From: Candidatus Woesearchaeota archaeon CG_4_10_14_0_2_um_filter_33_13
GTDB taxonomy: Archaea; Nanobdellota; Nanobdellia; Woesearchaeales; GW2011-AR9
Direction: 5' to 3'
NCBI GenBank assembly: GCA_002792115.1
Contig: PFNQ01000013.1
Location: 7,236 to 71,235, forward strand
DNA length: 64,000 bases
The notes below the pieces were generated by a model. It was not told where the DNA came from and ran no database searches. It worked only from the letters and a program-made list of their open reading frames with translations. This document shows positions 3,247-34,612 of the stretch, piece by piece (the first letter of the stretch is position 1; every line of letters starts with the position of its first letter). The translations under genes and the position numbers were made by a program.

Positions 3247-3855
3247 TTACAGTTGTTCTTTTTGTGGTTTATCCTCTTCAGTCATAACAGCAATAATTGC
3301 GTTTTTCACACAATGTGTGATAGCTAAGTGCAAATCCTCACAAATTTCCATGTTATTTATGTTTACATGAACCGATTTTGAAGCAATCTCTTTTATTTTC
3401 CCTCCTGAAAAACCACACAATGCGATAGTCAAAGCACCAACTTTATTGGCGTATATTAACGGTTTTACAATATTTGGAGAATTTCCACTACCAGAAATAC
3501 CAATGACCAAGTCATTTGGTTTTAAAAATACTTTCAAACTTTCAAGAAATATATCCTCGTAAGACAAGTCGTTTGCGATTGCCATCATCGCTGGAGAATT
3601 ATCATTAAGACAAATAGACTTGAATTTTCTATGCAATTGGCAAGACAATCCTTTTAAGATATCTCCACAAAAATGGGACGCATTCGCACCACTTCCTCCA
3701 TTACCAAAAATGTATATTGTGCCATCATTCTTATAAGTATTAATAATATCTTGCGCAAAAGAAACAATCTCTCCCTGATTTATTTTTCCTATCGCTTCTT
3801 GTAATTGAGTTAAATAGTTCTGTGTTTCTTCTTTAATTTTGTTCATGTTCATCAC
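3247..3855 (-). CDS. gmhA: Sedoheptulose-7-phosphate isomerase (SIS domain, GmhA)
   Basis: 202 aa with a SIS-domain motif (IYIFGNGGSGANASHFCGD; ISGSGNSPN). It is adjacent to the other heptose pathway genes. Confidence 0.85.
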   Translation of the reverse strand: MMNMNKIKEETQNYLTQLQEAIGKINQGEIVSFAQDIINTYKNDGTIYIFGNGGSGANASHFCGDILKGLSCQLHRKFKSICLNDNSPAMMAIANDLSYEDIFLESLKVFLKPNDLVIGISGSGNSPNIVKPLIYANKVGALTIALCGFSGGKIKEIASKSVHVNINNMEICEDLHLAITHCVKNAIIAVMTEEDKPQKEQL

Positions 3856-4828
3856 CCATGTAAATTATTCTAGATCCTTCATAATCAAATTTAAATTTCA
3901 TCTCCTTTAATTGGTGTAATGCCAATCTCAATTTTTCTCTATTTTCTTTTTCACAATAAAATAAAAGAAAACCCCCTCCCCCTGCACCTAAAAGTTTTCC
4001 TCCTACTGCTCCATTTTGTATCCCTTTTTCATACATTTCATTAATGAAAGGGGTTGTAATTTTTGATGCAAGCTTTTGTTTAAGTTGCCAATTTCGATGT
4101 AATATTTTTCCAAATTCTGTTAAATTGTTGTTACACAAAGCATCTTTTGCATCCCAAACCAACTCTACCATCTTTTTAAGAATCTCAACTTTTTCATCTT
4201 CTTTCATATTTTCATTCTGCTCTGACAAGATAGATGACGCTTCTCTTTGGTTTCCTAAATAAAACAAAATGAGATTATTTTGTAATCTCGTGTTGGTTTC
4301 TTCTGCAAGATTAATAGGTTCTACCTCTACTTTACCATTTGGATAGAATTTAATTATATTAAGTCCTCCAAATGAAGCAGCATATTGGTCTTGTTTGCCT
4401 ATTGGTTCTTTAAGAGTATCTATTTCTATCTCACATGCTTCTGATGCAAGTTGCTCTTTTGTAACATTTCTTCCAGAAAAAGTATGAAGATTATGTAACA
4501 TCCCAACAGTAAAAGACGATGATGAGCCCATTCCTGTACCAGAAGGGATATCAGCACCAGAACTGATTTCAATTGCTCCGTTCATATTAAATTTCTTTAA
4601 CACTTCTCTTGCTATTGGGTGCTGGATTTGATTTACAGAATCAACTGTTTCAGTTTTGGAGTATTTAATCCTAATTTTATTCTCATCAAAAAAACGATGA
4701 GAAGTGATATACATATATTTGTCAATACTTGTGCTGAGCACTGCACCTGGAGAATTCTGATAAAAACGTTTTAAATCTGAGCCCCCACCAACAAAACTAA
4801 TTCTGAACGGTGTTTTTGTGATTATCAT
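3833..4828 (-). CDS. hddA: GHMP kinase, D-glycero-alpha-D-manno-heptose-7-phosphate kinase-like (HddA)
   Basis: N-terminus MIITKTPFRISFVGGGSDL and GHMP motif PSGTGMGSSSS. It overlaps gmhA by 23 nt. Confidence 0.8.
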   Translation of the reverse strand: MIITKTPFRISFVGGGSDLKRFYQNSPGAVLSTSIDKYMYITSHRFFDENKIRIKYSKTETVDSVNQIQHPIAREVLKKFNMNGAIEISSGADIPSGTGMGSSSSFTVGMLHNLHTFSGRNVTKEQLASEACEIEIDTLKEPIGKQDQYAASFGGLNIIKFYPNGKVEVEPINLAEETNTRLQNNLILFYLGNQREASSILSEQNENMKEDEKVEILKKMVELVWDAKDALCNNNLTEFGKILHRNWQLKQKLASKITTPFINEMYEKGIQNGAVGGKLLGAGGGGFLLFYCEKENREKLRLALHQLKEMKFKFDYEGSRIIYMGDEHEQN

Positions 4829-4921
4829 GTTTATTTATTACCAAGATACTTCGTTAAATCACGCCAACATCCTTTATAAATTTTGTTAAGTGAAGTTCTC
4901 CTAAAGTAATCCAAAAGATAA

Positions 4922-6211
4922 TTAACTATTAGATATTTGGATTATAAAATTAACTGCCGCGTTTAAGTCTGGGAACAAATAATCTGGTTTTCCATTAATG
5001 CATCCCTCTCCAGTCTTAACACCAACTGTTTTAATCCCTGCGTTTTTCCCACAACTTATATCTCTAAGAGAGTCTCCTACAAAAAATGATTTTTTGAAAT
5101 CAATGTTAAAATATTCTTTTGCTTTAAGCAAAAGTCCAATATCTGGTTTTCGGCAGTTACATCTTACTTTATAAGTTATATTCTCTCCTTGATAACCTTT
5201 GTCTGGGTGGTGAGGGCAGTAATATATTGCATCGAACTTTGCTCCATTTTGTCCAAGCATGCTTTCCATCTTTTTGTGGATTTCTTCTAGTTCCTTAATT
5301 GAGCAAAGTCCTCTTGCAACAACCGGTTGGTTTGTAATTAAGATTGCAAGTAATTCAGTGTGGTTAATTTTTCTAATGGCTTCAGATACTCCAGGAATCA
5401 ACTCAAATTCATTTATATCATAAATGTGATCTTTTTTAACATTAATAGTTCCATCTCTATCTATAAATATCGCCCCTCTTTTATTTTGAGCATTTAACCT
5501 TTTTATCTTTCCATTTTCCAAATCTTTTTTAACTTCATCAAATCTTTCTTTTGTACCCATATCTTTTAAATATTCAGCAGTATTATACCCATACACCAGT
5601 AAACTTTGTGGTAGGCGGGGGAAAATATCTTTACCAAAATCTTCTTTTTTTCCTTTTTTAATATGTTTAAATATCTCTGTAGAAAATATATATATTCCGG
5701 CGTTAACTAGATTGTTATAATATGTTTTATTTTGATGTGGTTTAGGATGAAATGCAATAATTCTTCCTTCTTCATTAACTTCTAAAAGGTCACTATCATG
5801 GGGGTGGTCGTTTGGGTGAATAACTAGTGTGCATTTACTTGATTTCTGGTTATGAAACTGTATCAACTTATTTATGTTTATATCAAACATAATATCTCCA
5901 TATAATACTAAGAAGTCTTCAACTAATTTATTTTCAATTTCTTTCAATCCACCAGTTGTTCCAAGGGGAATTGTTTCTGTATAATATTCAATATTAACTC
6001 CAAATTCTTTTCCATCTTTGAAGTATTCTTCAATTACATTAGATAAATGCCCAGTAATTAGGATAATCTCCGAGATTCCATACCTTTTAAGGATGTTTAT
6101 TTGGTGTTCTAATATTGGTTTACTCCCTATTTGTATCATTGGTTTTGGAATTTCTTTTGATATATCTCCCATTCGAGTACCTTTCCCACCTGCAATTATT
6201 ACTGCTTTCAT
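4922..6211 (-). CDS. Fusion of heptose-1-phosphate nucleotidyl(guanylyl)transferase (HddC-like) and D,D-heptose-1,7-bisphosphate phosphatase (GmhB, HAD-IIIA)
   Basis: The N-terminal part has MKAVIIAGGKGTRM..PKPM (NTP-transferase). The C-terminal part has AIFIDRDGTIN (DxDxT) plus the GmhB-type Zn loop YYCPHHP..CNCRKP and FVGDSLRD. Confidence 0.8.
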   Translation of the reverse strand: MKAVIIAGGKGTRMGDISKEIPKPMIQIGSKPILEHQINILKRYGISEIILITGHLSNVIEEYFKDGKEFGVNIEYYTETIPLGTTGGLKEIENKLVEDFLVLYGDIMFDININKLIQFHNQKSSKCTLVIHPNDHPHDSDLLEVNEEGRIIAFHPKPHQNKTYYNNLVNAGIYIFSTEIFKHIKKGKKEDFGKDIFPRLPQSLLVYGYNTAEYLKDMGTKERFDEVKKDLENGKIKRLNAQNKRGAIFIDRDGTINVKKDHIYDINEFELIPGVSEAIRKINHTELLAILITNQPVVARGLCSIKELEEIHKKMESMLGQNGAKFDAIYYCPHHPDKGYQGENITYKVRCNCRKPDIGLLLKAKEYFNIDFKKSFFVGDSLRDISCGKNAGIKTVGVKTGEGCINGKPDYLFPDLNAAVNFIIQISNS

Positions 6212-6244
6212 CTTCTCATAGTAAGAATTCTATTAAATACAATT

Positions 6245-7210
6245 TTATTTTTTCACAACCCATTGGTTTTCTTTGATCCATTTGATTGTTTTTTCTACAC
6301 ATTCCATTATGGAATATTTTGGAGCCCACCCCAAAGATTTTATTTTTAAAGTATCAAGATGAACAAAGGGGCTGTCTCCAATCCATCCTCTACTCCCACC
6401 AGTATATTGAAAAGAGACGTCTTTGAGAGATAGTACATCACAAATTTTTTTTGCAATTGTCTTTATTTCTACAAAATCATCATTCCCCAGGTTGTAAATG
6501 TTTATTTTTTCGTTTGATTTTTCAATGGATAAAAACATTGCATCTATTGCGTCAGTTACATACAAAAATGATTTCCTTTGTTTTCCATCTCCAAGAATTT
6601 CTAACTGGCGGGGGTTTTGTAATAGTTTTTTATAAAAATCAAATGCACACCCATGGCTGTACCTTTCTCCCATAAGCGAAACAAATCTGTATATATACAC
6701 ATTAAATCCATATCCATTAGCATAGGCTTCTAAGAGGCCCTCGCATGCAAATTTTGAAGCTCCATAAATAGATGTTTGAATTGGAGATGAAACATTTTCT
6801 GGTGTTGGAAACACGCTTGGTTCTCCATAGATGGCTCCTGATGAAGCAAAAGCAATGTTCTTCACTCCCCATCGTCTCATTGCTTCCAGAACATTGTTTG
6901 TTGCAATGGTATTTTGATTTAAACATTTTATTGGGTCTTTTAGATTATCTTTTATGTCCGCATTTGCCGCCATATGAAATACAAAATCAATGTTTTCCAT
7001 TGCTTTGTGTAATGCTTCTTTATCTAGAATATCTCCTTGAATGAGTTCTACTTTTTCTTTTAAATGATTCACAAATTCTTTTTTCCCAGTAGTAAGGTTA
7101 TCATAAATAATGACATTATTGTTTAGAGAAATTAAGCGTTCAACAATATGACTACCAATGAAACCAGCCCCACCTGTAACTAATACTCTTTTATTATTCA
7201 ACAAGATCAT
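6245..7210 (-). CDS. NAD-dependent sugar-nucleotide epimerase/dehydratase (extended SDR)
   Basis: VLVTGGAGFIGSH Rossmann motif and YGASK (YxxxK) catalytic motif. 321 aa. Confidence 0.85.
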   Translation of the reverse strand: MILLNNKRVLVTGGAGFIGSHIVERLISLNNNVIIYDNLTTGKKEFVNHLKEKVELIQGDILDKEALHKAMENIDFVFHMAANADIKDNLKDPIKCLNQNTIATNNVLEAMRRWGVKNIAFASSGAIYGEPSVFPTPENVSSPIQTSIYGASKFACEGLLEAYANGYGFNVYIYRFVSLMGERYSHGCAFDFYKKLLQNPRQLEILGDGKQRKSFLYVTDAIDAMFLSIEKSNEKINIYNLGNDDFVEIKTIAKKICDVLSLKDVSFQYTGGSRGWIGDSPFVHLDTLKIKSLGWAPKYSIMECVEKTIKWIKENQWVVKK

Positions 7211-7398: not shown

Positions 7399-8031
7399 TT
7401 AAATTTTCTCTAACTTCAAGATAGTTATTTCTCCCAATAGCCTACATCTTTTAATTGGCAAGTTAATATTAAGAATGGGTATGTGGGTTCTATTGTATAT
7501 TATGTTTATAATTTTAAACTTATCTTTAATCAACATCTTAATGGTGGCAGGGAATATTGGAGTGATATGGCCAGCACCAAGGTCTAAATAATCTTCTTTA
7601 TCAAAAAAATTTGCAAATTTCAGACTGAACAAGTACAATAATCGAGAGTACCAATTGGTAACATTTGGGGTTGTTAGTACAAGTTTTCCTCTTGGCTTTA
7701 AAACTCGATGAACTTCTCTAATGAACTGGTATGGGTTTTCTATGTGTTCAATTATTTCTATTGCAGTGACTAAATCAAAACTATTGTTCTCATATGGTAG
7801 AATGCCTTCATTTAGGTAAACTGAACAACAAGGTACATCTTTCAATTTAAATTTTTTACTAAATAATTCGCATGCTTTCCTTTCAAAATGCTCTTTATTT
7901 AAACTTGATAGAAATGCGCCAGATCCTGCAGCTATATCCAATATCTTCCCTCGCTCACCCTTTAATAATTCCCTAGCCGTTTCATGAACCCCTGGTGCTG
8001 CTCGAACCGGCAATTTAATTCTTTTTTCCAT
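7399..8031 (-). CDS. Class I SAM-dependent methyltransferase
   Basis: ILDIAAGSGAF motif I and LKPRGKLVLTTPN. 210 aa. Confidence 0.75.
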   Translation of the reverse strand: MEKRIKLPVRAAPGVHETARELLKGERGKILDIAAGSGAFLSSLNKEHFERKACELFSKKFKLKDVPCCSVYLNEGILPYENNSFDLVTAIEIIEHIENPYQFIREVHRVLKPRGKLVLTTPNVTNWYSRLLYLFSLKFANFFDKEDYLDLGAGHITPIFPATIKMLIKDKFKIINIIYNRTHIPILNINLPIKRCRLLGEITILKLEKI

Positions 8032-9061
8032 GTGTAATCCCCTTTTTTATTTGAGCATTCTTAATATTCAGTAGATGTTGTAAACAAACATTGTGTTCAC
8101 TATGTGTAGTGTGAACATATTGAGTACACTTTTTAATAAAACTTTCCCTAAATTTAACATTTTTAATTAACTTTAATGCCAGATTTGGAAGTTGAGAATT
8201 TTTTTTCTTAATTATTTCCCATTGGTCATTACAAACAACTGCAGTTCCACATGCCATCGCTTCTAATTCAACTAAACTTAAGACACCTTGCCAGAAGGAA
8301 CCTAGCACTAAGTCCGCAGAACGATACAACTTTGGAAGATCATTGCGTGGAAAGAAATTATGCCAGATGATATCGTCTTTATATGTTTCAAAGAAAGATT
8401 TATAACGGCCATATTGGCTAAACCTTTTTGGGTATTTAACCAAATGTAATTTAGCAGAAGGGCACTTTTCTTTTATTTTTGAAAATATCTTGAACCCGAA
8501 CTCTGGACTTTTGACTTTGTGCAAACGAGTTGGGAATAAGATAATTGGATTACCTTCTAATTGTATCTTTTCACCAGTTGGATTAAATATGTCCGTATTA
8601 ATTGGGTTTGGCAACCATTGCGCATCTTTTCTAATATATTTTAATGTTGGAAGAATACTAGGGATTGCAGCATAAACAATATCGTACTTTTTAACTGAAG
8701 AAATAATTTTATTCTCAACTATTCTATTTAATATTGTTCCAAAAAGATGACTAAAAAATTGACTATGTTTTAAAGAGTTCTTAGAATTAAGTCCAATTGA
8801 GAAACCATGCCAATGTGCAATCCCAACTTGCCTCTGGTTTGGTACCATATTAGTCATGTTTGACCACACATTACAATGTAAAATATCAAATCGAGACAAT
8901 TCGTCTTTTCTCATCTTTTTAAGATGAAGGTAATGGGTTATAAAGTCATAACGCCCACTCTTTGGTTGATAATAATAAAAATCCCATTCTTTCATATGTT
9001 TTTTAAAAGTGTCTAACAAAAAACCCGGACCAAATCCGTTCATAAAATATTTTCCCTTCAT
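8015..9061 (-). CDS. Glycosyltransferase, GT-B (group 1-like)
   Basis: C-terminal SLVELEAMACGTAVVC motif typical of GT4. Overlaps the downstream methyltransferase by 17 nt. Confidence 0.6.
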   Translation of the reverse strand: MKGKYFMNGFGPGFLLDTFKKHMKEWDFYYYQPKSGRYDFITHYLHLKKMRKDELSRFDILHCNVWSNMTNMVPNQRQVGIAHWHGFSIGLNSKNSLKHSQFFSHLFGTILNRIVENKIISSVKKYDIVYAAIPSILPTLKYIRKDAQWLPNPINTDIFNPTGEKIQLEGNPIILFPTRLHKVKSPEFGFKIFSKIKEKCPSAKLHLVKYPKRFSQYGRYKSFFETYKDDIIWHNFFPRNDLPKLYRSADLVLGSFWQGVLSLVELEAMACGTAVVCNDQWEIIKKKNSQLPNLALKLIKNVKFRESFIKKCTQYVHTTHSEHNVCLQHLLNIKNAQIKKGITHGKKN

Positions 9062-9197: not shown

Positions 9198-10358
9198 ATG
9201 ATTAGCATAGCTAAATATTTATCCGGGAAAGGTATAGACGTATCTAAGAAAAGCAGTCTTTCGGATGTTAAACATGTTTTCATCGTTCCCGATAATACCT
9301 ACAGAATAGTTGAAACAGAGTTAGATTTCATTTATAATGATGGTGTGATCAACCTTACTAAGTATTATCGCATATTATTAAAAGAATGGTTTTATGCGCT
9401 TAAAAAGGATGGAAAAATAATAATCAAGTTCATTGAATCAGATTGGTTTTCATCTGATTTTCTCAAAGAAGAAGTAGAACTCTTGTTTGGCGATAGCGTA
9501 TCGGTTATTTTTGAGAGAAAAGAGAATAAGAAAGATGGCGGGAGTTGTTTTTTGGTTCTTAATAAAAATATCTCTGGGCCGTATTATCCAGAAGGAATAA
9601 ATAATTGGTCTTTTGGAATAATTACCAATGGAAAGAAAATGGATGCCTTAGCTAAGATAATTGCATCTATTAGACACCAGAATATTCCTAATTATGAGAT
9701 TATTATTTGTGGAACTTATGGTGGTTTAATAGAAGAAGACACGAAATACATTCACTTTACAGAAAATGACCATCGGGGATGGATAACTAAAAAAAAAAAT
9801 TTGATTTGTGATAAAGCCAAATTTGAAAATTTGTTTGTTCTGCACGATAGGATTGTTCTTAATCCGGGATGGTTTGCAGGAATGAAAAAATACGGAAATA
9901 ACTTTGAAGTACTCTCTTGCAAAATAGATCATAAAACAATTAGGACTTATGATTGGATTACTTCTCGATACCCTTATAAAGATCCAAGAAGCCGACAATA
10001 TTTTGGTGGTTATTTAGAATATTCCGATTGGGACCAGTGGATTTACATTGATGGTGGGGCGATTATCCTAAAAAAAATAGTCTGGGAAAAAGTTAAATGG
10101 GATGAAAACCTATTTTGGAATGAAGCAGAAGATCTTAAGCTTAGTCATGATCAAACAGAGCACGGAATTTTAATTAGGTTCAATCCTTATTCAACGTGTG
10201 AATCATTAACCTGGAGACATCCATCAAGTAAACTTATTTTTAAAAAGAACAAAAAGAAACTTGGAAAACTAAGTGGTCCTTTTCATTATTTAATTGGAAA
10301 AAAGCTGCTTAATTATTCTGTCCTCGTGAAAAACAAGTTTAAAAATGAAAAATTATAA
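9198..10358 (+). CDS. Two-domain protein with a C-terminal GT-A-like (GT2-like) glycosyltransferase domain
   Basis: WSFGIITNGKKMDALAKIIASIRHQNIPNYEIIICG resembles the start of a GT-A domain. GGAGG lies upstream of the ATG. The N-terminal 130 aa are unassigned. Confidence 0.45.
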   Translation: MISIAKYLSGKGIDVSKKSSLSDVKHVFIVPDNTYRIVETELDFIYNDGVINLTKYYRILLKEWFYALKKDGKIIIKFIESDWFSSDFLKEEVELLFGDSVSVIFERKENKKDGGSCFLVLNKNISGPYYPEGINNWSFGIITNGKKMDALAKIIASIRHQNIPNYEIIICGTYGGLIEEDTKYIHFTENDHRGWITKKKNLICDKAKFENLFVLHDRIVLNPGWFAGMKKYGNNFEVLSCKIDHKTIRTYDWITSRYPYKDPRSRQYFGGYLEYSDWDQWIYIDGGAIILKKIVWEKVKWDENLFWNEAEDLKLSHDQTEHGILIRFNPYSTCESLTWRHPSSKLIFKKNKKKLGKLSGPFHYLIGKKLLNYSVLVKNKFKNEKL

Positions 10359-11856
10359 TACTGATGTGGTGTTAATTAACCTCAATGGACCATTACATAT
10401 GACTTCTAATTATTTGCATGCTCTATTGAAACGTGAGGGAATTTTAGTTAAAACTATTCACTTTAGAGAATATGAGCCTCGGAGCGAACCTCCTACAAAT
10501 AATGAATTAGAAATACTCTCAAATTTGATTAAAGAGATTAATCCTAAAATAATTAACATTTCTGTAAATTCAATGAATTACTTTGATGCTAAGGATATTA
10601 CTGAAAAAATAAGAGGGGAACTTGGCATCCCTTTTATTTGGGGGGGCCCCCATACCCTTGTAATGCCTGAAGAAAGTATTAAAATCGCAGATTTCATTTG
10701 TCGTGGTGAGGGCGATGTTTATTTCCCAGAACTAATTAAGAAATTTATTGCAGGTGAGGATTGCAGTAAAGTTCCGAACATTTGGATTAAGAGGGGCCTA
10801 GAAGTAATAAAAAACGAATTTGGGCCTCTAGTTAAAGATTTGGACATGCTTCCATTTCCGGATTACTCTGATGTGGATAAATATTATCTGATTGATTCTC
10901 GGATAAGCACAAAGTATGAAATTCCTTCTAGAAAGTATGTTTATCAACTAATGACTTCTCGAGGGTGTCCTTTCAGGTGTAGTTATTGTATGAATTCTCT
11001 TATATTTAACTTATTCCATAACAAATTTCTTCGTAAACGGGGAGTTAATTCAGTAATAGAAGAGTTAGTCCAAGTAAAAAAGATGCATCCAAAATTAAAA
11101 ACAATTTATTTTTGGGATGACGTGTTTGTAATGGATCTTCCTTGGTTAAAAGAATTTGCCAAAGTATATAAAGAAAAGATTAATATCCCATTTTTTTGCT
11201 ATTGCCACCCAATGTTTGTAAAAGATGAAACAATTAAAATTCTTAAATGGATGGGTGTTAAGATGATCTTTATTGGGATTGAGAGTGGTTCTCCGCGGGT
11301 TAGAAGAGAAATTTACGATCGTCACGAAACTAACGACAAAATAATTGAAGCAGCAACAATTATTAACAAACATAAAATTAAGGTTCATTATGACATCATC
11401 ACTTCAAAATTTGACACTCTAAAGGACTTTGACGTTGCATTACATCTGTTACTAAACTTGCCTAAACCGTTTCATATAAATCATAATAATTTGGCATATT
11501 ATCCGGGATTTAAAATTACGAATTTGGCCCTCCAAGAAAAAATAATATCAAAGCAGGAAGTTGCGGGGTATTCAAGAAAGATTAGAACACAATATGCAAC
11601 AAAAAATGAATTTGAGAATAATCCTGAATTGGCATATTATTACCTCATTGGGAGAAAATTCATCCCCAACCAGTTTATTTTTTGGTTGTACTCACATGAA
11701 TCTCATCTCAAACATAAGAGTTTATTTGGCCATATCCCTTCTTTGTTTGAAAGCTTTGATAATAATTTACATGCTCTAAATTTGATGTTTAAGCTGTTGT
11801 CATATGGGGAATTTAAATTTGTATTTTTTGAACTTAAGAAACGATTCTTTAAGTGA
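10345..11856 (+). CDS. B12-binding-domain radical SAM enzyme (class B)
   Basis: MTSRGCPFRCSYC (CxxxCxxC) preceded by an N-terminal B12-binding-like domain (WGGPHTLVMPEE; CRGEGDVYFPEL). 503 aa. Confidence 0.8.
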   Translation: MKNYNTDVVLINLNGPLHMTSNYLHALLKREGILVKTIHFREYEPRSEPPTNNELEILSNLIKEINPKIINISVNSMNYFDAKDITEKIRGELGIPFIWGGPHTLVMPEESIKIADFICRGEGDVYFPELIKKFIAGEDCSKVPNIWIKRGLEVIKNEFGPLVKDLDMLPFPDYSDVDKYYLIDSRISTKYEIPSRKYVYQLMTSRGCPFRCSYCMNSLIFNLFHNKFLRKRGVNSVIEELVQVKKMHPKLKTIYFWDDVFVMDLPWLKEFAKVYKEKINIPFFCYCHPMFVKDETIKILKWMGVKMIFIGIESGSPRVRREIYDRHETNDKIIEAATIINKHKIKVHYDIITSKFDTLKDFDVALHLLLNLPKPFHINHNNLAYYPGFKITNLALQEKIISKQEVAGYSRKIRTQYATKNEFENNPELAYYYLIGRKFIPNQFIFWLYSHESHLKHKSLFGHIPSLFESFDNNLHALNLMFKLLSYGEFKFVFFELKKRFFK

Positions 11857-11877: not shown

Positions 11878-13500
11878 TTGTCAGAGATTCACAAACTTTA
11901 TATAAGCCCAGTTACACAGAATTTGTGGTGTACCCAAGTGATTCCTGATAACAAATATGTATTAGTTTTAAATTTAGGATTGAGGAGTATTAGAGCAATT
12001 GTTTTTGATCATACTGGTAAAAAGTTAACACATAGCTGGCTACCAGTAAGAACTTTTATTAAGGATGAGATGGTTGAACAAGATCCAAATGAGTGGTGGT
12101 CACTTGCCTTACGTGTAATTGACGAAGCTACTACTAGCCAAGAAATAAAAGATAATTTGGAATATATTACTGTTACAAGTTCATCTTGTAATCTGGTTCT
12201 TGTTGATGAAGATAAAAACTCGTTGGGTAATTCTTTAATGGTTTCTGACAAAAGGTCTTTAATACAGGCACAACAACTTTTTGAACATGAACCAATAAAA
12301 TATTTGTTTGATACACATAATATTCTTCCAGTTTCAAGTTTCTTAGCTCCAAAAATTCTTTGGATAAAAGATAAAGATCCAAATCGATTTTATCATACAA
12401 AACATTTTATTAGCTCTGATTCTTACCTTTTGATGAAACTAACTAATGGGATTATTGTTTCTGACCCTCTTAATGCTGAAAAAGCATTTTATTACATGCC
12501 TGAGAATAAATACCCTGCTCCATTATTAGAATATTTAGGTCTAACTGAAAAAAACTTTCCTCAAGTTAAGAATGTTGGAACAATTATTGGTAAAATTTCT
12601 CCTGAACTAAAAACTTTGTTTGCTTTTAACCAAAACGTTAGTGTGGTTCTTACAACTTATGATGCATTAGCTTCATTCTGGGGTTCGGGAGCACTAGAAG
12701 AAGGAGAAGCATGCATTGTTTGTGGAACGTGTTCTTCCATTAGAGTTTACTCTAAAGAAGGGCTAAAACAAAAAACTGCTGGATTATTATCTCAATATTT
12801 TGAAAATAAAAATGCTCATGTTGTTGGTGGATCAAATAATCTTGCAGGCGGTCTTTTAGAATGGGCTAAGGACGCATTTTATCAGGATGTTTATTCAGAT
12901 AATAATGACTATATCTTTGGTTTGATGGAGCAAGAAGCTAACACTAGTACTCTTGGAGCAAAAGGATTAATCTTTCTGCCATATCTTATTGGAGAAAGAA
13001 CCCCCTTCTTTGATTCTGAGGTTAGAGGTATGTTCTTTGGATTAGAAAGATCCCATAATAGAAAAGATATTATCAGATCAATCTACGAAGCCATTGGGTT
13101 TTTATCTTGGGATATTATCACATCTATGGAAAGAGGTGGGGTGTTAGTCAGAAATCTTCGCCTTTCTGGCGGCTTAGGAAAAAATGAGTTAATTTGTCAG
13201 ATTAAGGCTGATATTACTGGGAAAGAAGTTCATCTTTTGGATGAGGTTGAAACAACTGCTCTCGGATGTTTTATGCTTATTGCTTCTGCTTTAGGGGGTA
13301 ATGAAACACAGAAAGTTTTTCCCACAAATCTCTCTATCAGTAAAAGGTTCATTCCTAATTTAGATAACCATATCAAATATCAACAACTCTATCACCTTTT
13401 CAAAAAATTATACAAAGACAATAAAGAAAATTTTAAGTACAGAAATGAATTACTCAAAACAATTAATGAAAAGAGGAAATACGAAGTAAAAAACTTATAG
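11878..13500 (+). CDS. FGGY-family carbohydrate kinase (xylulokinase/glycerol-kinase-like, substrate unknown)
   Basis: 540 aa with FGGY architecture (LNLGLRSIRAIVFD..; VGGSNNLAGGLLEW; LPYLIGERTPF; RLSGGLGKNE). The track start is TTG, so the true start is uncertain. Confidence 0.75.
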   Translation: MSEIHKLYISPVTQNLWCTQVIPDNKYVLVLNLGLRSIRAIVFDHTGKKLTHSWLPVRTFIKDEMVEQDPNEWWSLALRVIDEATTSQEIKDNLEYITVTSSSCNLVLVDEDKNSLGNSLMVSDKRSLIQAQQLFEHEPIKYLFDTHNILPVSSFLAPKILWIKDKDPNRFYHTKHFISSDSYLLMKLTNGIIVSDPLNAEKAFYYMPENKYPAPLLEYLGLTEKNFPQVKNVGTIIGKISPELKTLFAFNQNVSVVLTTYDALASFWGSGALEEGEACIVCGTCSSIRVYSKEGLKQKTAGLLSQYFENKNAHVVGGSNNLAGGLLEWAKDAFYQDVYSDNNDYIFGLMEQEANTSTLGAKGLIFLPYLIGERTPFFDSEVRGMFFGLERSHNRKDIIRSIYEAIGFLSWDIITSMERGGVLVRNLRLSGGLGKNELICQIKADITGKEVHLLDEVETTALGCFMLIASALGGNETQKVFPTNLSISKRFIPNLDNHIKYQQLYHLFKKLYKDNKENFKYRNELLKTINEKRKYEVKNL

Positions 13501-13504
13501 AAAA

Positions 13505-14221
13505 ATGAAAGTATTAATCCCCCTCGCAGGACGTGGCTCACGCTTTATTGAAGCAGGTTATACCCTGCCAAAACCATTGGTTCTTATTATTAAAGAACCA
13601 ATGATTCGATGGGCAACTAAAAACCTTAACATTGAGGATAAAGATTTGATTTTTTTCATTCTCAAGATCCATATCGATAATTATCAATTAGATCAGAAAT
13701 TAAGAGAAATATTCTCCGCTAATATCAAAATTGTTGTTGTGGATAAAATTACCGAAGGGGCTCCAATAACTCTTCTTCAGGCAAAAGACATTATCGATAC
13801 CGAAGAAGAACTTTTAATATTTAATGGAGACCAGAACTTCAAAGAAAACATTATAGAAATGATTCGTAATCTTCCATTAAAGTATTCTGGGTTAATACCT
13901 GTGTTTCATTCAACACAAACAAAATTTAGTTACGCTCAAGTTGATAAGGGTATGGATGTTATAGAAGTGGCAGAAAAGATTCCAATTTCTAGTTATGCAA
14001 CTGCAGGAGTTTACTATTTCCGCCATGGAAAAGATTTTGTGTGGGCCACAGAACAAATGATATCTAAAGATATTAGAAGAGGGAATGAATTCTTTGTTTG
14101 TCCAGTATACAATGAATTGCTTGGACGCGGGGACAAAATAAAAGCCACCTTAATTGAAACTTTCTGGCCTTTAGGAACACCAGAAGATGTAGAACACTTT
14201 AAAAGGTATTATCATCCTTGA
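13505..14221 (+). CDS. Sugar-phosphate nucleotidyltransferase (GT-A fold), paralog 1
   Basis: MKVLIPLAGRGSRF..LPKPLV N-terminus. It shares AGVYYFRHGKDFVW..EFFVCPVYNELL..LGTPEDV with the ORF at 15478. Confidence 0.7.
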   Translation: MKVLIPLAGRGSRFIEAGYTLPKPLVLIIKEPMIRWATKNLNIEDKDLIFFILKIHIDNYQLDQKLREIFSANIKIVVVDKITEGAPITLLQAKDIIDTEEELLIFNGDQNFKENIIEMIRNLPLKYSGLIPVFHSTQTKFSYAQVDKGMDVIEVAEKIPISSYATAGVYYFRHGKDFVWATEQMISKDIRRGNEFFVCPVYNELLGRGDKIKATLIETFWPLGTPEDVEHFKRYYHP

Positions 14222-15047
14222 TGTGTTTATATAATTGTTTTAATTTATTGGGATAGTCAGTACAGATTCCATCAACATTCAATCTAATGAGGCGTTCCCA
14301 TACTTCTTCAAATCCTTCTTTTGATAGTGGGTGCTTAGGAATAGTATCTTTATGCAGTTCTGGTGAGATTGCGTAGACTAATTTGCCGTCATTATGGCAT
14401 TTATCAATAAACTCTTTGTTATATAATCCATGAACCCATTCATCTGCCCAGACAATTTCCCAACAATTCTCTTTAATGGCCTCTTGGTAGTTGTAGATTG
14501 TTGGATATCTTTTGTCCGGAAAGAGTATATTCTCTCCAATCGATAAAGATAGTTTAAGCTTAGGTTGGAGTTTTTGAAACTTTTTAGCAGAACTAATCAA
14601 AATGTCAAACACAAAAACACGTTTATAAATGTTAAAATCTGGAAAATCTTTTTCAAACTGGTCTAGTTCCTTAACTATCAATATTTCAATATCCTTTTCG
14701 GAACAATCTTTAACTTGAATTGCCAATTCAACCACAGGTAAGGATTTTGCTCTAAACAATTCTAATGTTTCTCTCAAGGAAGGAATTTTTCCAGTGTTAT
14801 TTACTCCAGTTGCTTTTATATAATTAATGCCAATTTTCTGAAGAGAATCAAAATTTATGTTAGTTATTTCTTTATCAATACTTGCTAGGCGTTTAAGATT
14901 AGAATCATGGATGACCACTAGTTTGCCATCTTTGGTACGGTGGATGTCAATCTCTAGACCAAACCCTTGTTCTAGGGCGTGTGTAAAAGATAAAATCGTA
15001 TTCTCTGGATAATTAAGCATTAATCCGCGATGAGCAAAAATTTTCAT
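14199..15047 (-). CDS. Glycerophosphodiester phosphodiesterase (GDPD family)
   Basis: MKIFAHRGL..YPENT..FGLEIDIHRTKDGKLVVIHD are classic GDPD motifs. Its 3' end overlaps the convergent neighbour by 23 nt. Confidence 0.8.
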   Translation of the reverse strand: MKIFAHRGLMLNYPENTILSFTHALEQGFGLEIDIHRTKDGKLVVIHDSNLKRLASIDKEITNINFDSLQKIGINYIKATGVNNTGKIPSLRETLELFRAKSLPVVELAIQVKDCSEKDIEILIVKELDQFEKDFPDFNIYKRVFVFDILISSAKKFQKLQPKLKLSLSIGENILFPDKRYPTIYNYQEAIKENCWEIVWADEWVHGLYNKEFIDKCHNDGKLVYAISPELHKDTIPKHPLSKEGFEEVWERLIRLNVDGICTDYPNKLKQLYKHIKDDNTF

Positions 15048-15151
15048 ACTACTCTCCTTATAACTGTTTTTTATATTTTTTTCGCAAGAGATATAACTTT
15101 AGGTCGCTTTTTTTCATAATTATTATAAATAAAAAGCGTAACCTTTGTTCC

Positions 15152-15481
15152 ATGGAAAGGCAAGATTTTAAGGAAATGACTAAAGGGTGGTTTGTTGGAG
15201 ATTTTGAGCCAAGTGCATTAAAGACAGATAAAGCGGAAGTAGCGGTTAAAAGATATAAAAAGGATGATTTTGAAGAAAAACATCATCATAAAGTTGCTAC
15301 GGAAATAACTTTAATTATCTCTGGAAAAGTTGAGATGAATAATCAGTGTTATCAAACCAATGATATTATTATAATTCTTCCTGGAGAAAGTACTAACTTT
15401 AAAGTTCTTGAAGACACTATTACCGTGGTCGTAAAAGTTCCATGTGTGAAAGGAGATAAATATTTAGGTGATGCAAAATGA
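15152..15481 (+). CDS. Small cupin-domain protein
   Basis: 109 aa with a His-rich cupin-like core (EEKHHHKVATEITLIISGKVEM). 4-nt overlap with the next gene. Confidence 0.55.
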   Translation: MERQDFKEMTKGWFVGDFEPSALKTDKAEVAVKRYKKDDFEEKHHHKVATEITLIISGKVEMNNQCYQTNDIIIILPGESTNFKVLEDTITVVVKVPCVKGDKYLGDAK

Positions 15482-16197
15482 AAATTGTTATGCCCATTGC
15501 GGGATTAGGTTCAAGATTTACTAAGGTGGGGATTGATACTCCAAAACCATTAATCAGTATTCTTAACAACCATATGGCAAAATGGTCTGCTAAATCCATT
15601 CCTTTTGCTAAACCGGAAGACTTTATTTTTATTCTCAGAAAAGAACATGTTAAATCTCATAATCTTGACAAGGAAATGCGGAAATTATTCCCCGAATGTA
15701 AAATCATTGAAATTGATTATGTTACTCAGGGAGCTGCATGTACTGTACTTTTAGCTAAAGAATTTATTAACAACGATGAACAACTAATAGTTACGGATTG
15801 TGACCATTTCTTTAGGAACACCCATTACAACTTTTTAGTAACTAGCAAGATTGATGACCTTAAAGGAATAATCCCTGTTTTTAAGGCTGATGGTGAGAAA
15901 TGGAGCTTTACAAAGTTTGATGAGAATAATGTAGTTTTACAAGTAGCAGAAAAGAAAAGGATTTCAGACTATGCTAATATTGGGGCGTACTATTTTCGAT
16001 ACGGGAAAGATTTCGTATGGGCTGCTGAAAAGATGATCAAAGAGAATAAACGGGTGAATAATGAATTTTATGTTGCTCCAGTTTATAATGAGTTGTTAGA
16101 AAGTGGCGCTAAGATTATGGCTGCCGTTTGTGACGAAGTATGGGGTTTGGGCACCCCAGAGGATGTTAAAATATTTGAAGAAAAGTTTATAAATTAA
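15478..16197 (+). CDS. Sugar-phosphate nucleotidyltransferase (GT-A fold), paralog 2
   Basis: MKIVMPIAGLGSRF..TPKPLI; IGAYYFRYGKDFVW..EFYVAPVYNELL..LGTPEDV. Roughly 35-40% identical by eye to the ORF at 13505. Confidence 0.7.
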   Translation: MKIVMPIAGLGSRFTKVGIDTPKPLISILNNHMAKWSAKSIPFAKPEDFIFILRKEHVKSHNLDKEMRKLFPECKIIEIDYVTQGAACTVLLAKEFINNDEQLIVTDCDHFFRNTHYNFLVTSKIDDLKGIIPVFKADGEKWSFTKFDENNVVLQVAEKKRISDYANIGAYYFRYGKDFVWAAEKMIKENKRVNNEFYVAPVYNELLESGAKIMAAVCDEVWGLGTPEDVKIFEEKFIN

Positions 16198-16793
16198 ATA
16201 GTAACAATTTTGGAAGTATGGTCTTTCGGATTGATTAAAACAGCATAAACCTCTTCATTAGAAGGATTATAAGCTATTATTTCTGGTTCAGAACAGTTTT
16301 CAAAATACCTTTTTGTATTACGCATTACTCCCAAATGTGAAATCACTAAAATTACATCTTTTTTGTTTCCTTTGATTAACTTCTTCAAGAAATTAGCAAC
16401 GCGGGGATAAATAATGGCATAACTTTCTCCAGCTAATCCTTCATACTCTCCGGGATGAACAAAATTATATTTGTCCTTGTTTCTTGTTTGCCAAAGATTA
16501 TCTGCCTTTAACAAAGATTTTTTATGACCTTCCCATGAACCATAACACATCTCTTTCAAATTATTAATAATTGTAACTGGAATGTTGGATTCTTTTGCAA
16601 TGACTTTCGTCGTCTCTATACACCGAGTAGCAGGACTAGAGAAGATTTGGATTACATTTATGGTCTTAGCTAGTTTTGCTAGTTTTTTTGCTTGTTCTAT
16701 TCCTTTTTTTGTTAATGGAGAATCTGATATCCCTTGTAATCTACCTTCACAATTATATTCAGTTTCTCCATGCCGTGCAAAAACAATTAACAT
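16194..16793 (-). CDS. Histidine phosphatase family protein (phosphoglycerate-mutase-like)
   Basis: N-terminal FARHGETEYN (RHG motif) and a later ISHLGVMR (His motif). 199 aa. Confidence 0.8.
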   Translation of the reverse strand: MLIVFARHGETEYNCEGRLQGISDSPLTKKGIEQAKKLAKLAKTINVIQIFSSPATRCIETTKVIAKESNIPVTIINNLKEMCYGSWEGHKKSLLKADNLWQTRNKDKYNFVHPGEYEGLAGESYAIIYPRVANFLKKLIKGNKKDVILVISHLGVMRNTKRYFENCSEPEIIAYNPSNEEVYAVLINPKDHTSKIVTI

Positions 16794-19614: not shown

Positions 19615-20271
19615 TTATCTTCTTAACCTCCACACCAGCATATTAAAAGCAATTGTTATTCCATCTAAGAAGGTTGTACCTTTATAATTGTCATGGTATA
19701 TCGTTTGAATGGGGATTTGGGTATATTTCAACTTTGATCTACCAAGATTGGCAATCATTTCTGTTTCTACAGAATAATCACTGGATTGCCATCTGATTAA
19801 CTTATAAGTGTGATCAGTAAATGCCCTGTACCCAGATTGTGTGTCATCTAATTTAATTTTAAACAACAATCTTGTCCAGATATTAAGAAACCAGTTGCCA
19901 AATTTTAATATTAATGGCATGTTTTTTGATCTTTTTCTAACACCAAAAACAAGGTCATAAGTTTCTAAGAGTTTGACGAATGTAGGGATCTCTGCGGGGT
20001 CATGTTGCCCATCAGAGTCCATGACAATAATCTTTTTAGCCCCACACTTTATTGCATAATCACAGCCAGTTTTTAAAGCAGAACCTTTGCCTAAGTTAAT
20101 GATATGTTGTAAAGAATGGACATTTGGAATGGTTTTGATTAATCTGGAAGTATTATCTGTGCTTCCATCATCAATTACAATAATATTTTGGGCATATTTC
20201 TTTGTTTCTTCTAAAGTAAAAACTATCCTTCTTTCTTCATTATAAGCAGGAATAACAATCCATTCATTCAT
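19615..20271 (-). CDS. GT2 glycosyltransferase, polyprenyl/dolichyl-phosphate sugar synthase-like
   Basis: VIPAYNEE, IDDGSTDNT and MDSDGQHDP motifs. 218 aa. TTTATAAA lies 23 nt upstream of the ATG. Confidence 0.8.
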   Translation of the reverse strand: MNEWIVIPAYNEERRIVFTLEETKKYAQNIIVIDDGSTDNTSRLIKTIPNVHSLQHIINLGKGSALKTGCDYAIKCGAKKIIVMDSDGQHDPAEIPTFVKLLETYDLVFGVRKRSKNMPLILKFGNWFLNIWTRLLFKIKLDDTQSGYRAFTDHTYKLIRWQSSDYSVETEMIANLGRSKLKYTQIPIQTIYHDNYKGTTFLDGITIAFNMLVWRLRR

Positions 20272-34585: not shown

Positions 34586-34612
34586 TTAAAACTTAGCGAA
34601 AAAATTATTAAA

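Follow-up and report, generated by a model that had tools for sequence, protein, structure and literature searches.

A predicted heptose-activation operon encoding a nucleotidyltransferase-phosphatase fusion in a woesearchaeal glycan-assembly island

Results

An operon predicted to supply an activated heptose

A four-gene operon of the tiny, uncultured Candidatus Woesearchaeota archaeon CG_4_10_14_0_2_um_filter_33_13 (GTDB Nanobdellota; Woesearchaeales; GW2011-AR9) is predicted to convert sedoheptulose-7-phosphate to an activated heptose for the glycan-assembly island around it, a proposal to which we give a probability of roughly 60%. It lies in a window of 64,000 nt (contig PFNQ01000013.1, positions 7,236 to 71,235 of the forward strand, assembly GCA_002792115.1). 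A preliminary description had placed four minus-strand genes at 3247-7210, and the open reading frames match exactly (202, 331, 429 and 321 aa by increasing coordinate, the 429-aa frame at 4922-6211; Table 1). Transcription runs from the SDR through the fused nucleotidyltransferase-GmhB protein and the HddA kinase to GmhA, whose frame overlaps the HddA stop by 23 nt. Pfam assigned SIS_2 to the GmhA frame, GHMP_kinases_N and C to the kinase, NTP_transferase plus HAD-like in one chain to the fusion, and Epimerase to the SDR. The host is archaeal: the fusion is 100% identical to a Candidatus Woesearchaeota archaeon protein and the window also encodes TFIIB, GatD and AglB/STT3.

[quoted passage not shown] In the 429-aa protein, the GmhB domain at the C-terminus would remove the 7-phosphate, and the N-terminal ManC/HddC-like nucleotidyltransferase would join heptose-1-phosphate to a nucleoside triphosphate, most likely GTP; with both domains on one chain, a rigid two-domain enzyme would physically link these consecutive third and fourth steps. 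The GalE-type SDR would probably invert C-4, yielding either a GDP-heptose of talo configuration or an equilibrium mixture, after which GT4 and GT2 enzymes would build the sugar into a lipid-linked glycan that is flipped and then transferred by AglB. No source of sedoheptulose-7-phosphate was identified within the window.

Table 1. Features of the operon and of the surrounding island (window coordinates)
Feature	Position	Strand	Evidence
GalE-type SDR, operon gene 1, probable NDP(GDP)-heptose 4-epimerase	6245-7210	-	Pfam Epimerase 179 bits, PDB relatives
Nucleotidyltransferase half of fusion, residues 1-232, probably heptose-1-phosphate guanylyltransferase	5516-6211	-	PF00483 138 bits
Inter-domain linker, residues 233-245	5477-5515	-	conserved pattern, pLDDT
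GmhB-type HAD-IIIA half, residues 246-429 and stop codon, predicted heptose-1,7-bisphosphate 7-phosphatase	4922-5476	-	NCBIfam, 2gmw, Foldseek
[quoted passage not shown]
GmhA-type predicted sedoheptulose-7-phosphate isomerase, SIS domain	3247-3855	-	PDB, NCBIfam, motifs
Class-I methyltransferase, upstream, co-oriented	7399-8031	-	Pfam Methyltransf_11
GT4 glycosyltransferase, upstream, co-oriented	8015-9061	-	Pfam Glycos_transf_1
Wzx-type flippase	16866-18146	-	Pfam Polysacc_synt
GT4	18148-19290	-	Pfam Glycos_transf_1
GT2	19615-20271	-	Pfam Glycos_transf_2
AglB/STT3 oligosaccharyltransferase	20357-23260	-	Pfam STT3 155 bits

The isomerase, kinase and phosphatase belong to heptose-enzyme families

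By sequence, the isomerase, kinase and phosphatase are assigned to heptose-enzyme families; an NDP-heptose core is highly probable. The kinase is placed unambiguously within the HddA clade, as previously claimed. A PDB sequence search returned 3k85 (2.7e-43), WcbL 4usk (4.7e-37) and C. jejuni 4n3o (7e-37), with fucokinase as the next family (2e-15); in round figures, HddA structures at 1e-43 to 1e-37 are separated from fucokinase at 1e-15 by more than 20 orders of magnitude. The isomerase likewise groups with heptose enzymes, its PDB matches being mostly phosphoheptose isomerases (1tk9 at 3e-21) apart from two weaker matches to the GmhA paralog DiaA. The GmhA motifs GNGGS, SGSGNS and E-x-x-H-x-x-x-x-H align, with Asp at the catalytic-acid position. 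The phosphatase half passes TIGR01656 (121 bits, cut-off 84) and TIGR01662 (107, cut-off 45) and matches E. coli GmhB 2gmw at 1.8e-32 and, by Foldseek, with a TM-score of 0.90 at 1.9 A. Residue-by-residue alignment confirmed the DxDxT motif and zinc loop described earlier and showed that every E. coli GmhB motif is retained, namely D251-R-D253-G-T, TNQ, C351-x-C353-RKP, GDxxxD and the zinc loop C332-P-H334 ... C351-x-C353; an alignment of 34 homologs shows the motif and zinc-loop residues to be invariant.

All four enzymes score below the curated NCBIfam equivalog cut-offs of the pathway-specific models, which are the best models for the isomerase (gmhA, 97 bits against 209) and the kinase (HddA, 163 against 600). 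The GmhB models are missed narrowly (160 against 178; 131 against 149.6), and the HddC model is missed too (113 against 300). These misses, the better scores of ManC models on the nucleotidyltransferase half and the JGI annotation of some homologs as 'mannose-1-phosphate guanylyltransferase / phosphomannomutase' would fit a cassette that makes no heptose at all and instead produces a GDP-hexose such as GDP-mannose, the HAD half acting on a hexose bisphosphate either as a phosphatase or as a mutase. We regard this as very improbable given a kinase that falls unambiguously in the HddA clade, an isomerase that matches chiefly GmhA structures, a GmhB-type HAD half that has the family-specific zinc loop and is unrelated to phosphomannomutases, and unfused operons that carry the same four functions.

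Authenticity of the 429-aa fusion protein

As had been proposed, a nucleotidyltransferase and a GmhB-type phosphatase are truly fused in the 429-aa protein: Pfam detects NTP_transferase (residues 2-232, 138 bits) and HAD-like (residues about 246-416) in the same chain. An assembly or frameshift artefact, raised earlier as a possible objection, is contradicted by several observations. The frame is uninterrupted, with its sole stop at the end, and the identical protein is recorded on two contigs (sources NCBI, JGI, ENA and Logan). In bacteria and archaea alike, the halves are connected by a conserved linker some 20 residues long, whose pattern G-K-[IV]-x-R-[LF]-N-x-x-N-[KR]-[RQ] is kept across CPR, DPANN, Firmicutes and others. 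The whole-chain AlphaFold2 model is confident (mean pLDDT 93.9, pTM 0.90), including the linker region 231-250 (mean pLDDT 94-96 over 10-residue blocks). In the literature searched, we found neither a paper describing the fusion nor biochemical data on any member of the fused family.

The GDP-heptose route with HddC (2001 work, summarised in PMC10680097) shares its four chemical steps with the proposed pathway, with an SIS isomerase, a GHMP kinase of the HddA clade and a HAD-IIIA zinc-loop GmhB, and the nucleotidyltransferase fold is that of HddC (TM 0.84). The operon differs in carrying steps 3 and 4 on a single polypeptide, nucleotidyltransferase first, and in a nucleotidyltransferase that lies outside the HddC equivalog; in C. 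jejuni, GmhB is encoded outside the capsule cluster (PMC10680097). HldE and the NDP-beta-heptose enzymes also fuse consecutive heptose-activation steps and also occur in archaea. HldE, however, joins a PfkB kinase to a cytidylyltransferase-fold adenylyltransferase and activates the beta-anomer, the sugar being carried by ADP, CDP or UDP, whereas the window encodes a GHMP kinase of the alpha route and an RmlA/ManC-fold nucleotidyltransferase. The architectures listed for these enzymes are mono-domain, kinase/nucleotidyltransferase and isomerase/kinase/nucleotidyltransferase, never nucleotidyltransferase/phosphatase (Tang et al. 2024, summarised in PMC11573728).

The nucleotidyltransferase half and the choice of nucleotide

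The nucleotidyltransferase half, earlier called HddC-like, is not a canonical HddC: its matches assign it to a separate ManC-like lineage. It scores 174 bits with ManC_Rv, 136 with Arch_glmU and 113 with HddC, all sub-cut-off; in the PDB, 8x7s (1e-37) and GMPP/VTC1 (1e-26) are closer than HddC (4e-17), and Foldseek likewise ranked tlr0611 and VTC1/GMPPB at the top, HddC 5xhw aligning at 3.2 A. The GGxGTR...PKP motif is conserved, and the fusion and operon point to heptose-1-phosphate as the predicted substrate. The preliminary description had counted a grouping of this domain with mannose-1-phosphate or glucose-1-phosphate enzymes, and of the kinase with unrelated GHMP kinases, against the pathway. 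The former grouping is formally observed, whereas the latter is not, and the former is a weak argument because the standalone nucleotidyltransferase of a classical unfused heptose operon itself scores 194 bits with HddC and 177 with ManC.

We consider GDP the probable nucleotide of the product. The nucleotidyltransferase half falls in the ManC/HddC neighbourhood, and in T. onnurineus a GMPPB-type nucleotidyltransferase adjoins the ortholog of the epimerase PhGal4E_1. A bona fide LegB (519 bits, cut-off 475) partners relatives that share 32-35% identity with it in the nucleotidyltransferase half, and the LegB pathway runs on a GDP-sugar. The same heptose core might instead be linked to another nucleotide, since 8x7s (tlr0611), the best solved match in both sequence and fold, is deposited as a UTP--glucose-1-phosphate uridylyltransferase, so that a ManC-like sequence is no guarantee of GTP use and GDP is a likely rather than a firm assignment. 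PhGal4E_1 also accepts UDP-glucose (PMC12171764), and a C-terminal PRK/uridine-kinase-family domain, present in 39 of the 120 closest relatives among the matches listed, could hint at a pyrimidine nucleotide. The window protein, however, lacks this P-loop domain, which lies equally far from phosphoribulokinases; ManC_Rv is the top model, the LegB-paired relatives belong to a GDP-sugar pathway, and the characterised relatives of the partner SDR favour GDP-sugars (PMC12171764), which together make a nucleotide other than GDP unlikely.

The SDR and a probable modified heptose

Comparative data show the SDR to be a conserved member of the cassette, sister to the recently described GDP-sugar 4-epimerases. 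Its best PDB matches are 3EHE of A. fulgidus (2e-82) and PhGal4E_1 (8RDG/8RDH, 1.5e-74), each 42% identical to it, followed by 3ICP and by P. calidifontis 3AW9. 3EHE, 3AW9 and PhGal4E_1 form an archaeal subgroup of promiscuous 4-epimerases that prefer GDP-sugars (PMC12171764), a paper in whose text 'heptose' does not occur. The window enzyme shares their S/T-Y-K triad (as S-Y-K) and H182, and a GalE-type mechanism is expected by analogy. It differs in that P80, R83 and N174 are replaced by A, K and S, leaving one of the four PhGal4E_1 substrate contacts (H182), and in its heptose neighbours; most cassette SDRs carry S, Q and N at these three positions.

In nine of the 16 genome loci, and also in a Nanoarchaeota locus, the fusion is flanked directly by an SDR of this subgroup, often a few bases from it or overlapping it, and in the Firmicutes order HddA-SDR-fusion-GmhA it sits between heptose genes. 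In one locus (L015) a different tailoring SDR, a GMD/LegB-like dehydratase, fills the slot, an argument for a heptose-tailoring role of whatever enzyme is encoded there. The SDR noted earlier after the heptose genes is thus present, and is more than a generic neighbour. Since it is conserved in the cassette and related to GDP-sugar 4-epimerases, the product is likely a modified heptose, probably C4-epimerised instead of plain GDP-manno-heptose; 4-epimerisation of the heptose is a tentative assignment, a little short of an even chance. [quoted passage not shown]

An ordinary archaeal hexose 4-epimerase, acting on UDP- or GDP-glucose/galactose with the heptose genes as mere neighbours, would agree with GalE as the top NCBIfam model, with a slightly higher identity of the window SDR to 3EHE and PhGal4E_1 (42%) than to most bacterial cassette SDRs (36-45%), with characterised Thermococcales orthologs of PhGal4E_1 that have no heptose gene neighbours, and with the several activated hexoses that the glycan island requires. 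It is nonetheless improbable, as it sits poorly with the recurrence of the SDR immediately beside the fusion in unrelated phyla, with S80/Q83 common to cassette SDRs as against P80/R83 of hexose-active members, and with the dehydratase in the equivalent slot.

The enzyme could also act elsewhere on the heptose, as an HldD-like C-6 epimerase giving L-glycero-D-manno-heptose or as a C-4 oxidase opening a longer route. The ADP-heptose 6-epimerase model TIGR02197 is significant (93 bits in the window, 101 in locus L004), and Campylobacter fixes heptose stereochemistry through 4-keto intermediates (PMC10680097). GalE (167 bits) and the GDP-sugar 4-epimerase structures score far higher, however; neither a cupin epimerase nor a separate C4-reductase lies in the cassette, and the dehydratase-type acid/base pair is absent as judged from the sequence and known SDR motifs, so we rate this as quite improbable. 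Campylobacter likewise modifies GDP-manno-heptose with SDR-family enzymes whose genes neighbour those for activation, using a C4-dehydrogenase, a 4,6-dehydratase, C3/C5-epimerases and C4-reductases. There, C-4 passes through a free 4-keto form and is set by separate reductases, whereas the sole tailoring gene of the operon encodes a GalE-type enzyme; the talo-configured 6-deoxy product is expressly recorded as unobserved in C. jejuni (PMC10680097).

The surrounding island and the distribution of the cassette

The operon lies, as described earlier, near flippase and AglB genes, within an island that also holds GT4 and GT2 genes. From their co-location, the flippase, its neighbouring GT4, the GT2 and AglB probably make use of the activated sugar downstream, and the upstream methyltransferase and GT4 possibly perform tailoring and transfer steps. 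No GT9 was found in the window; a Nanoarchaeota contig carries a GT9 heptosyltransferase-like gene two genes downstream of the fusion.

The fusion is no archaeal oddity but widespread in bacteria, both environmental and from the gut. Its full-length relatives at 53-65% identity number at least 120 and come from CPR bacteria, Firmicutes, Bacteroidota, Thermodesulfobacteriota, Planctomycetota and several DPANN archaea; about one third, among the matches listed, have the extra P-loop kinase domain. Across the 16 independent genome loci, with the Nanoarchaeota locus L027 counted separately, HddA adjoins the fusion in 13 and GmhA in 12, an association far beyond chance. Of the 13 neighbouring HddA homologs, 12 are 42-63% identical to the window kinase and the one in L015 is 36% identical. 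Synteny extends to Saccharibacteria, Nealsonbacteria, Thermodesulfobacteriota, Gastranaerophilales, Firmicutes and a second Woesearchaeote, and L004 has the same gene order as the window. Lachnospiraceae and Clostridium carry an unfused nucleotidyltransferase-HddA-GmhB-GmhA operon, which indicates that the separate halves work together in the same pathway. The suggested bacterial-to-archaeal transfer of the block is plausible from this distribution, while the tree gives no decision on direction. Heptoses, earlier thought unusual in archaeal glycans, have precedents in the Thermoplasma N-glycan and in ADP-heptose enzymes of methanogens (PMC11407970, PMC11573728).

A predicted heptose-activation cassette in an archaeal genome

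Open reading frame calls combined with Pfam assignments placed four minus-strand genes, for a GalE-type SDR, a nucleotidyltransferase (NT)-GmhB fusion, an HddA-type kinase and a GmhA-type isomerase, exactly where the preliminary description had located them (see table). Since the kinase and isomerase genes overlap by 23 nt and the other neighbours lie 33 and 93 nt apart, the block looks like one transcription unit running from the SDR through the fusion and the kinase to the isomerase. The sequence comes from an archaeon: a protein deposited from Candidatus Woesearchaeota archaeon CG_4_10_14_0_2_um matches the fusion at 100% identity, and TFIIB, GatD and AglB/STT3 are also encoded in the window. 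Scans of the 64-kb window for tRNAs and Rfam families gave no matches.

We interpret the block as a divergent cassette for heptose activation by the alpha branch, in which a bifunctional NT-GmhB enzyme is accompanied by a GalE-type SDR dedicated to tailoring. It represents a variant form of a pathway already known, occurs in DPANN archaea as well as in many bacteria, and has a GDP-linked alpha-heptose as its predicted product. All four proteins missed the pathway-specific curated equivalog cut-offs of NCBIfam, which indicates a divergent lineage outside the current models and means for annotation that none of them captures the cassette. Whereas the HldE-type (beta/ADP) route employs a PfkB heptose-7-P kinase and a cytidylyltransferase-fold adenylyltransferase, the window cassette has a GHMP kinase and an RmlA/ManC-fold NT; the sole PfkB protein in the window is distant from the cassette, and its best models are ribokinase/IolC-like.

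In its fullest form, to which we give a probability of roughly 0.3, the reading is that HddA, GalE-type SDR, NT-GmhB and GmhA make up a route that is widespread and biochemically uncharacterised and that leads to a C-4-epimerised GDP-heptose (D-glycero-D-talo, or galacto-heptose entry). The route would include a one-enzyme NDP-heptose 4-epimerase, the first of its kind, and a phosphatase-transferase of rigid, bifunctional build passing heptose-1-P directly between its active sites; the cassette would be both common to CPR bacteria and DPANN archaea and exchanged between them. If true, ultra-small CPR and DPANN episymbionts would carry the same unusual heptose on their surfaces, a trait common to both within the same groundwater communities. 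The alpha (GHMP-kinase) branch would then reach into DPANN archaea, archaeal reports so far being confined to the beta/ADP branch; the NT-GmhB fusion would define a large protein family; and a new tailoring reaction would be suggested, in which an activated heptose is epimerised directly at C-4. Heptose had been called unusual for archaeal glycans, which is correct but not without precedent. The Thermoplasma acidophilum N-glycan has a rare heptose isomer (PMC11407970), and HldE-type ADP/CDP/UDP-beta-heptose enzymes are known from archaea, the architectures listed in that source including no NT-phosphatase fusion (PMC11573728). The searchable literature, which leaves out most subscription journals and so is no proof of absence, held nothing relevant on an HddC-GmhB fusion or on archaeal GDP-heptose.

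Coordinates of features in the window and in homologous loci (NT, nucleotidyltransferase)
Feature	Location	Strand	Details
GmhA-type SIS isomerase	3247-3855	-	202 aa; Pfam SIS
HddA-type kinase	3833-4828	-	331 aa; Pfam GHMP kinase N and C
NT-GmhB fusion	4922-6211	-	429 aa; Pfam NTP_transferase and HAD-like, single chain
GalE-type SDR	6245-7210	-	321 aa; Pfam NAD-dependent epimerase/dehydratase
Glycan island	first 23 kb		four GT4s, GT2s, FkbM and class-I methyltransferases, B12-radical SAM enzyme, FGGY kinase, two short NTs, GDPD, histidine phosphatase, Wzx-type flippase, AglB
B12-binding radical SAM enzyme	10345-11856		among glycosyltransferases
Second activation module	11878-16793
First short NT	13505-14221		in second module, directly after FGGY kinase
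Glycerophosphodiester phosphodiesterase	14199-15047	-	in second module
Second short NT	15478-16197		in second module
Histidine phosphatase	16194-16793	-	in second module
HAD + NT pair	33884-35311	+	free-standing HAD_2 hydrolase, then archaeal GlmU/RmlA-type NT
Housekeeping-type NT	34613-35311
Large multidomain protein	38775-42119	-	1114 aa
PfkB protein	48596-49606
Three-domain fusion P0007, Nanoarchaeota	L027:6001-7887		C-terminal PF00485
Three-domain fusion, Thermodesulfobacteriota	L004:5959-7875		C-terminal PF00485
Three-domain fusion P0028			C-terminal PF00485
Three-domain fusion P0118	L029		C-terminal PF00485
Cassette variant, second Woesearchaeote	L015:389-4145
Gene set, Nanoarchaeota	L027:5067-10459
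Cassette fragments	L029:7881-9618		2.1-Mb contig

The predicted kinase, isomerase and phosphatase activities

In a PDB search the best matches of the kinase were three solved structures of HddA/WcbL proteins (1e-43 to 1e-37), far ahead of fucokinase, the next family (2e-15). It scored 163 bits on the NCBIfam HddA equivalog (cut-off 600) and can be assigned, as had been proposed, to the heptose-7-P 1-kinase clade of GHMP kinases as a divergent member. PDB matches of the isomerase were mainly GmhA phosphoheptose isomerases (best 3e-21); the GNGGS, SGSGNS and E..H....H motifs of GmhA align, with Asp at the catalytic-acid position, and the curated gmhA equivalogs were missed (97 bits against 209). 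The C-terminal half of the fusion aligned with E. coli GmhB at 1.8e-32, retaining DxDGT, TNQ, CRKP, GDxxxD and the Cys-x-His...Cys-x-Cys zinc loop, and these elements are invariant across 34 homologs. It passed the NCBIfam cut-offs for HAD-IIIA and histidinol-phosphatase-domain models and narrowly missed those of the GmhB-specific models (160/178 and 131/149.6). A GmhB structure also fits this half of the predicted model at TM 0.90 (Foldseek). The earlier description of a GmhB part with DxDxT and a zinc loop is borne out.

The fusion is genuine and widespread

The fusion reads as a single frame, the identical protein occurs in NCBI, JGI, ENA and Logan sources and on two contigs, and the inter-domain linker of ~20 residues is kept from Firmicutes to DPANN. 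These observations rule out a frameshift or assembly artefact and confirm a true single-protein NT-GmhB fusion. Its AlphaFold2 model had a mean pLDDT of 93.9, with no residue below 50, and a pTM of 0.90 that implies a fixed geometry between the two domains; Foldseek returned no solved structure covering both halves (best query TM-score 0.53).

Of 8,000 candidates scored in a homolog search, 7,996 reached E<=1e-10, and the 120 top-ranking ones are all full-length and 53-65% identical to the fusion. Among these 120, 81 have two domains; the other 39 have a third, a P-loop domain at the C-terminus (PF00485, about 47 bits) of the phosphoribulokinase/uridine-kinase family. Replacement of HddA by this domain is ruled out for the Thermodesulfobacteriota locus, where HddA and GmhA still lie downstream; in the Nanoarchaeota locus L027 neither was found within 6 kb of the three-domain fusion. 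Among species-representative genomes, full-length fusions occurred in Saccharibacteria, Nealsonbacteria, Thermodesulfobacteriota, Polaribacter, Cryomorphaceae, Gastranaerophilales, Erysipelotrichaceae, Clostridiales, Eubacterium, Bacilli, Spirochaetaceae, 'Tenericutes', Lachnospiraceae and a second Woesearchaeote; other named relatives are from Nanoarchaeota, Diapherotrites, Planctomycetota and Peregrinibacteria. With at least 120 full-length relatives of mostly bacterial distribution, the fusion is neither rare nor an archaeal peculiarity. It is authentic, old and frequent. Its family comprises at least 120 clusters (53-65% identity) and probably runs to thousands of proteins, for which the only current database names are 'HAD-IIIA hydrolase' and 'D,D-heptose 1,7-bisphosphate phosphatase'.

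The nucleotidyltransferase half and its nucleotide

The N-terminal half comprises an entire sugar-1-P nucleotidyltransferase, with GGxGTR...PKP present. On NCBIfam it scored 174 bits with ManC_Rv, 136 with archaeal GlmU, 128 with MurU and 113 with HddC (NF049965; cut-off 300). By sequence its PDB matches were 8x7s (1e-37; entry title 'tlr0611', deposited as UTP--glucose-1-phosphate uridylyltransferase), GMPPB/VTC1 (1e-26) and, only at 4e-17, the Y. pseudotuberculosis HddC. An HddC structure fits this half of the predicted model at TM 0.84 (Foldseek). The label HddC-like thus holds for the fold, but judged by these scores the domain is not a canonical HddC equivalog. The GDP-heptose pathway as originally read is supported in part. 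Grouping of the NT with mannose-1-P or glucose-1-P enzymes, and of the kinase with unrelated GHMP kinases, had been named as an argument against the pathway. The kinase belongs with HddA. The NT does formally group in that way, yet this is a weak discriminator, since the standalone NT of an unfused Lachnospiraceae operon (NT-HddA-GmhB-GmhA) scored nearly equally on HddC (194 bits) and ManC (177), making the two near neighbours. We infer heptose-1-P as the NT substrate from the covalent fusion to GmhB and the conserved operon, not from orthology.

GDP is the nucleotide that we would favour, with some reserve, because ManC is the best model, NT relatives are paired with LegB and SDR relatives prefer GDP-sugars. 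In Clostridium loci (L019-L026), relatives 32-35% identical to the NT half adjoin a bona fide LegB 4,6-dehydratase (519 bits, cut-off 475) and look like legionaminic-acid-type guanylyltransferases. Legionaminic-acid synthesis begins with a GDP-sugar. The characterised relatives of the cassette SDR likewise favour GDP-sugars (PMC12171764). A different nucleotide on the same heptose core seems unlikely, although two points speak for one: the solved protein nearest to the NT half is deposited as a UTP-dependent enzyme, and the optional third domain of relatives belongs to the uridine-kinase/PRK family. That domain, though, is equally remote from the uridine-kinase and PRK branches (3asy 2.5e-9, 6kev 3e-7).

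The SDR as a candidate heptose 4-epimerase

A PDB sequence search gave 3EHE (2e-82), 8RDG/8RDH (1.5e-74), 3ICP and 3AW9 as the best solved relatives of the SDR. The 8RDG/8RDH protein is Pyrococcus horikoshii PhGal4E_1, a promiscuous GDP-sugar 4-epimerase, with which 3EHE and 3AW9 are placed in one archaeal subgroup (PMC12171764). Cassette SDRs are 40-49% identical to these solved 4-epimerases and the window SDR 42%. The window SDR shares with the subgroup the NS-SDR triad [S/T]-x(n)-Y-x3-K (equivalents S119/S120, Y145, K149), which the cassette SDRs keep as well, but departs from three of the four substrate-network residues. The PhGal4E_1 contacts P80, R83, N174 and H182 are A, K, S and H in the window and S, Q, N and H in most cassette SDRs, with S/K at the first two positions in L027 and with N174 and H182 retained in nearly all. 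The cassette SDRs are therefore best treated as a putative sister group of the PhGal4E_1 subgroup with a remodelled sugar pocket. As for activity, C-4 epimerisation of an activated heptose is the parsimonious prediction, offered tentatively at a little under even odds; we infer the preference for GDP-sugars and the C-4 inversion from the 42% identity and the pairing with a ManC-like NT. Heptose as the physiological substrate of PhGal4E_1-type enzymes themselves was unsupported, since the ortholog neighbourhoods of P. furiosus and T. onnurineus carry no GmhA, HddA or GmhB; the former has no sugar-activation neighbours and the latter adjoins a GMPPB-type NT. Campylobacter sets C-4 via a 4-keto intermediate and separate reductases, the talo-configured 6-deoxy product not being observed (PMC10680097), whereas the window holds a single candidate. 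A one-enzyme NDP-heptose 4-epimerase would be new.

Conservation and variants of the cassette

When window proteins were compared by tblastn with 16 fusion loci from genomes, HddA adjoined the fusion in 13 loci and GmhA in 12, and an SDR 36-45% identical to that of the window lay nearby in nine, plus the Nanoarchaeota locus. The order SDR-fusion-HddA-GmhA is common to the window and the Thermodesulfobacteriota locus; gut Firmicutes have HddA-SDR-fusion-GmhA. This recurrence and shared order argue that the SDR belongs to the unit and is no bystander.

The second Woesearchaeote encodes HddA, a GMD/LegB-like 4,6-dehydratase SDR, GmhA and NT-GmhB, a set that points to 6-deoxy-heptose as the product of this other DPANN lineage; with a dehydratase in the SDR position, the slot appears to hold each lineage's own heptose-tailoring SDR. 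The Nanoarchaeota locus, from assembly GCA_016782615.1, has in this order an SDR, an NT-GmhB-kinase triple fusion, a flavin amine-oxidase/UDP-galactopyranose-mutase-like protein, which hints at a possible pyranose-furanose mutase step, and a GT9 heptosyltransferase-like glycosyltransferase. The GT9, two genes downstream of the fusion, matches heptosyltransferase models only, and the gene set independently supports the use of heptose by DPANN. In L029, HddA, GmhA and SDR fragments lie in different frames downstream of the three-domain fusion, being either pseudogenes or long-read frameshift errors.

Origin of the cassette

In a bootstrapped neighbour-joining tree rooted on an unfused pair, DPANN fusion copies were interleaved with those of CPR, Planctomycetota and Thermodesulfobacteriota in a star-like group whose printed internal nodes mostly had <50% bootstrap, so neither DPANN monophyly nor a clear donor was supported; gut Firmicutes grouped in a clade of their own (100% support), and the second Woesearchaeote branched apart. 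Inter-domain exchange of the fusion is evident. Together with the overwhelmingly bacterial distribution, it makes the previously proposed bacterial-to-archaeal transfer plausible, but the tree gives neither direction nor number of events. The GC content of the block (0.315-0.323) falls within that of the window (0.29-0.37) and provides no compositional sign of recent transfer. The window's housekeeping-type NT (archaeal GlmU-type, 215 bits) shares just 32% identity with the fusion NT half, consistent with a separate origin of the latter. The same scores rule out the HAD + NT pair to which it belongs as a split paralog of the fusion, its HAD being of the unrelated HAD_2/CTE7 type and not GmhB-homologous.

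The surrounding glycan island and other genes

A single glycan island occupies the first 23 kb of the window, and co-location suggests that the product is used in an AglB- or flippase-dependent glycan, as had been supposed; no GT9 heptosyltransferase was found in the window. The same island holds a second, unassigned activation module, in which the FGGY kinase resembles xylulokinase (215 bits, cut-off 380). The B12-binding radical SAM enzyme resembles HpnJ, ladderane-lipid and C-methyltransferase models, all below cut-off, and may perform C-methylation or ring modification of a glycan or lipid. Elsewhere in the window, the 1114-aa protein has Lamin Tail Domain, Nup98-96 autopeptidase S59-like and CARDB matches, a domain combination unusual for an archaeon, and is probably a large surface protein.
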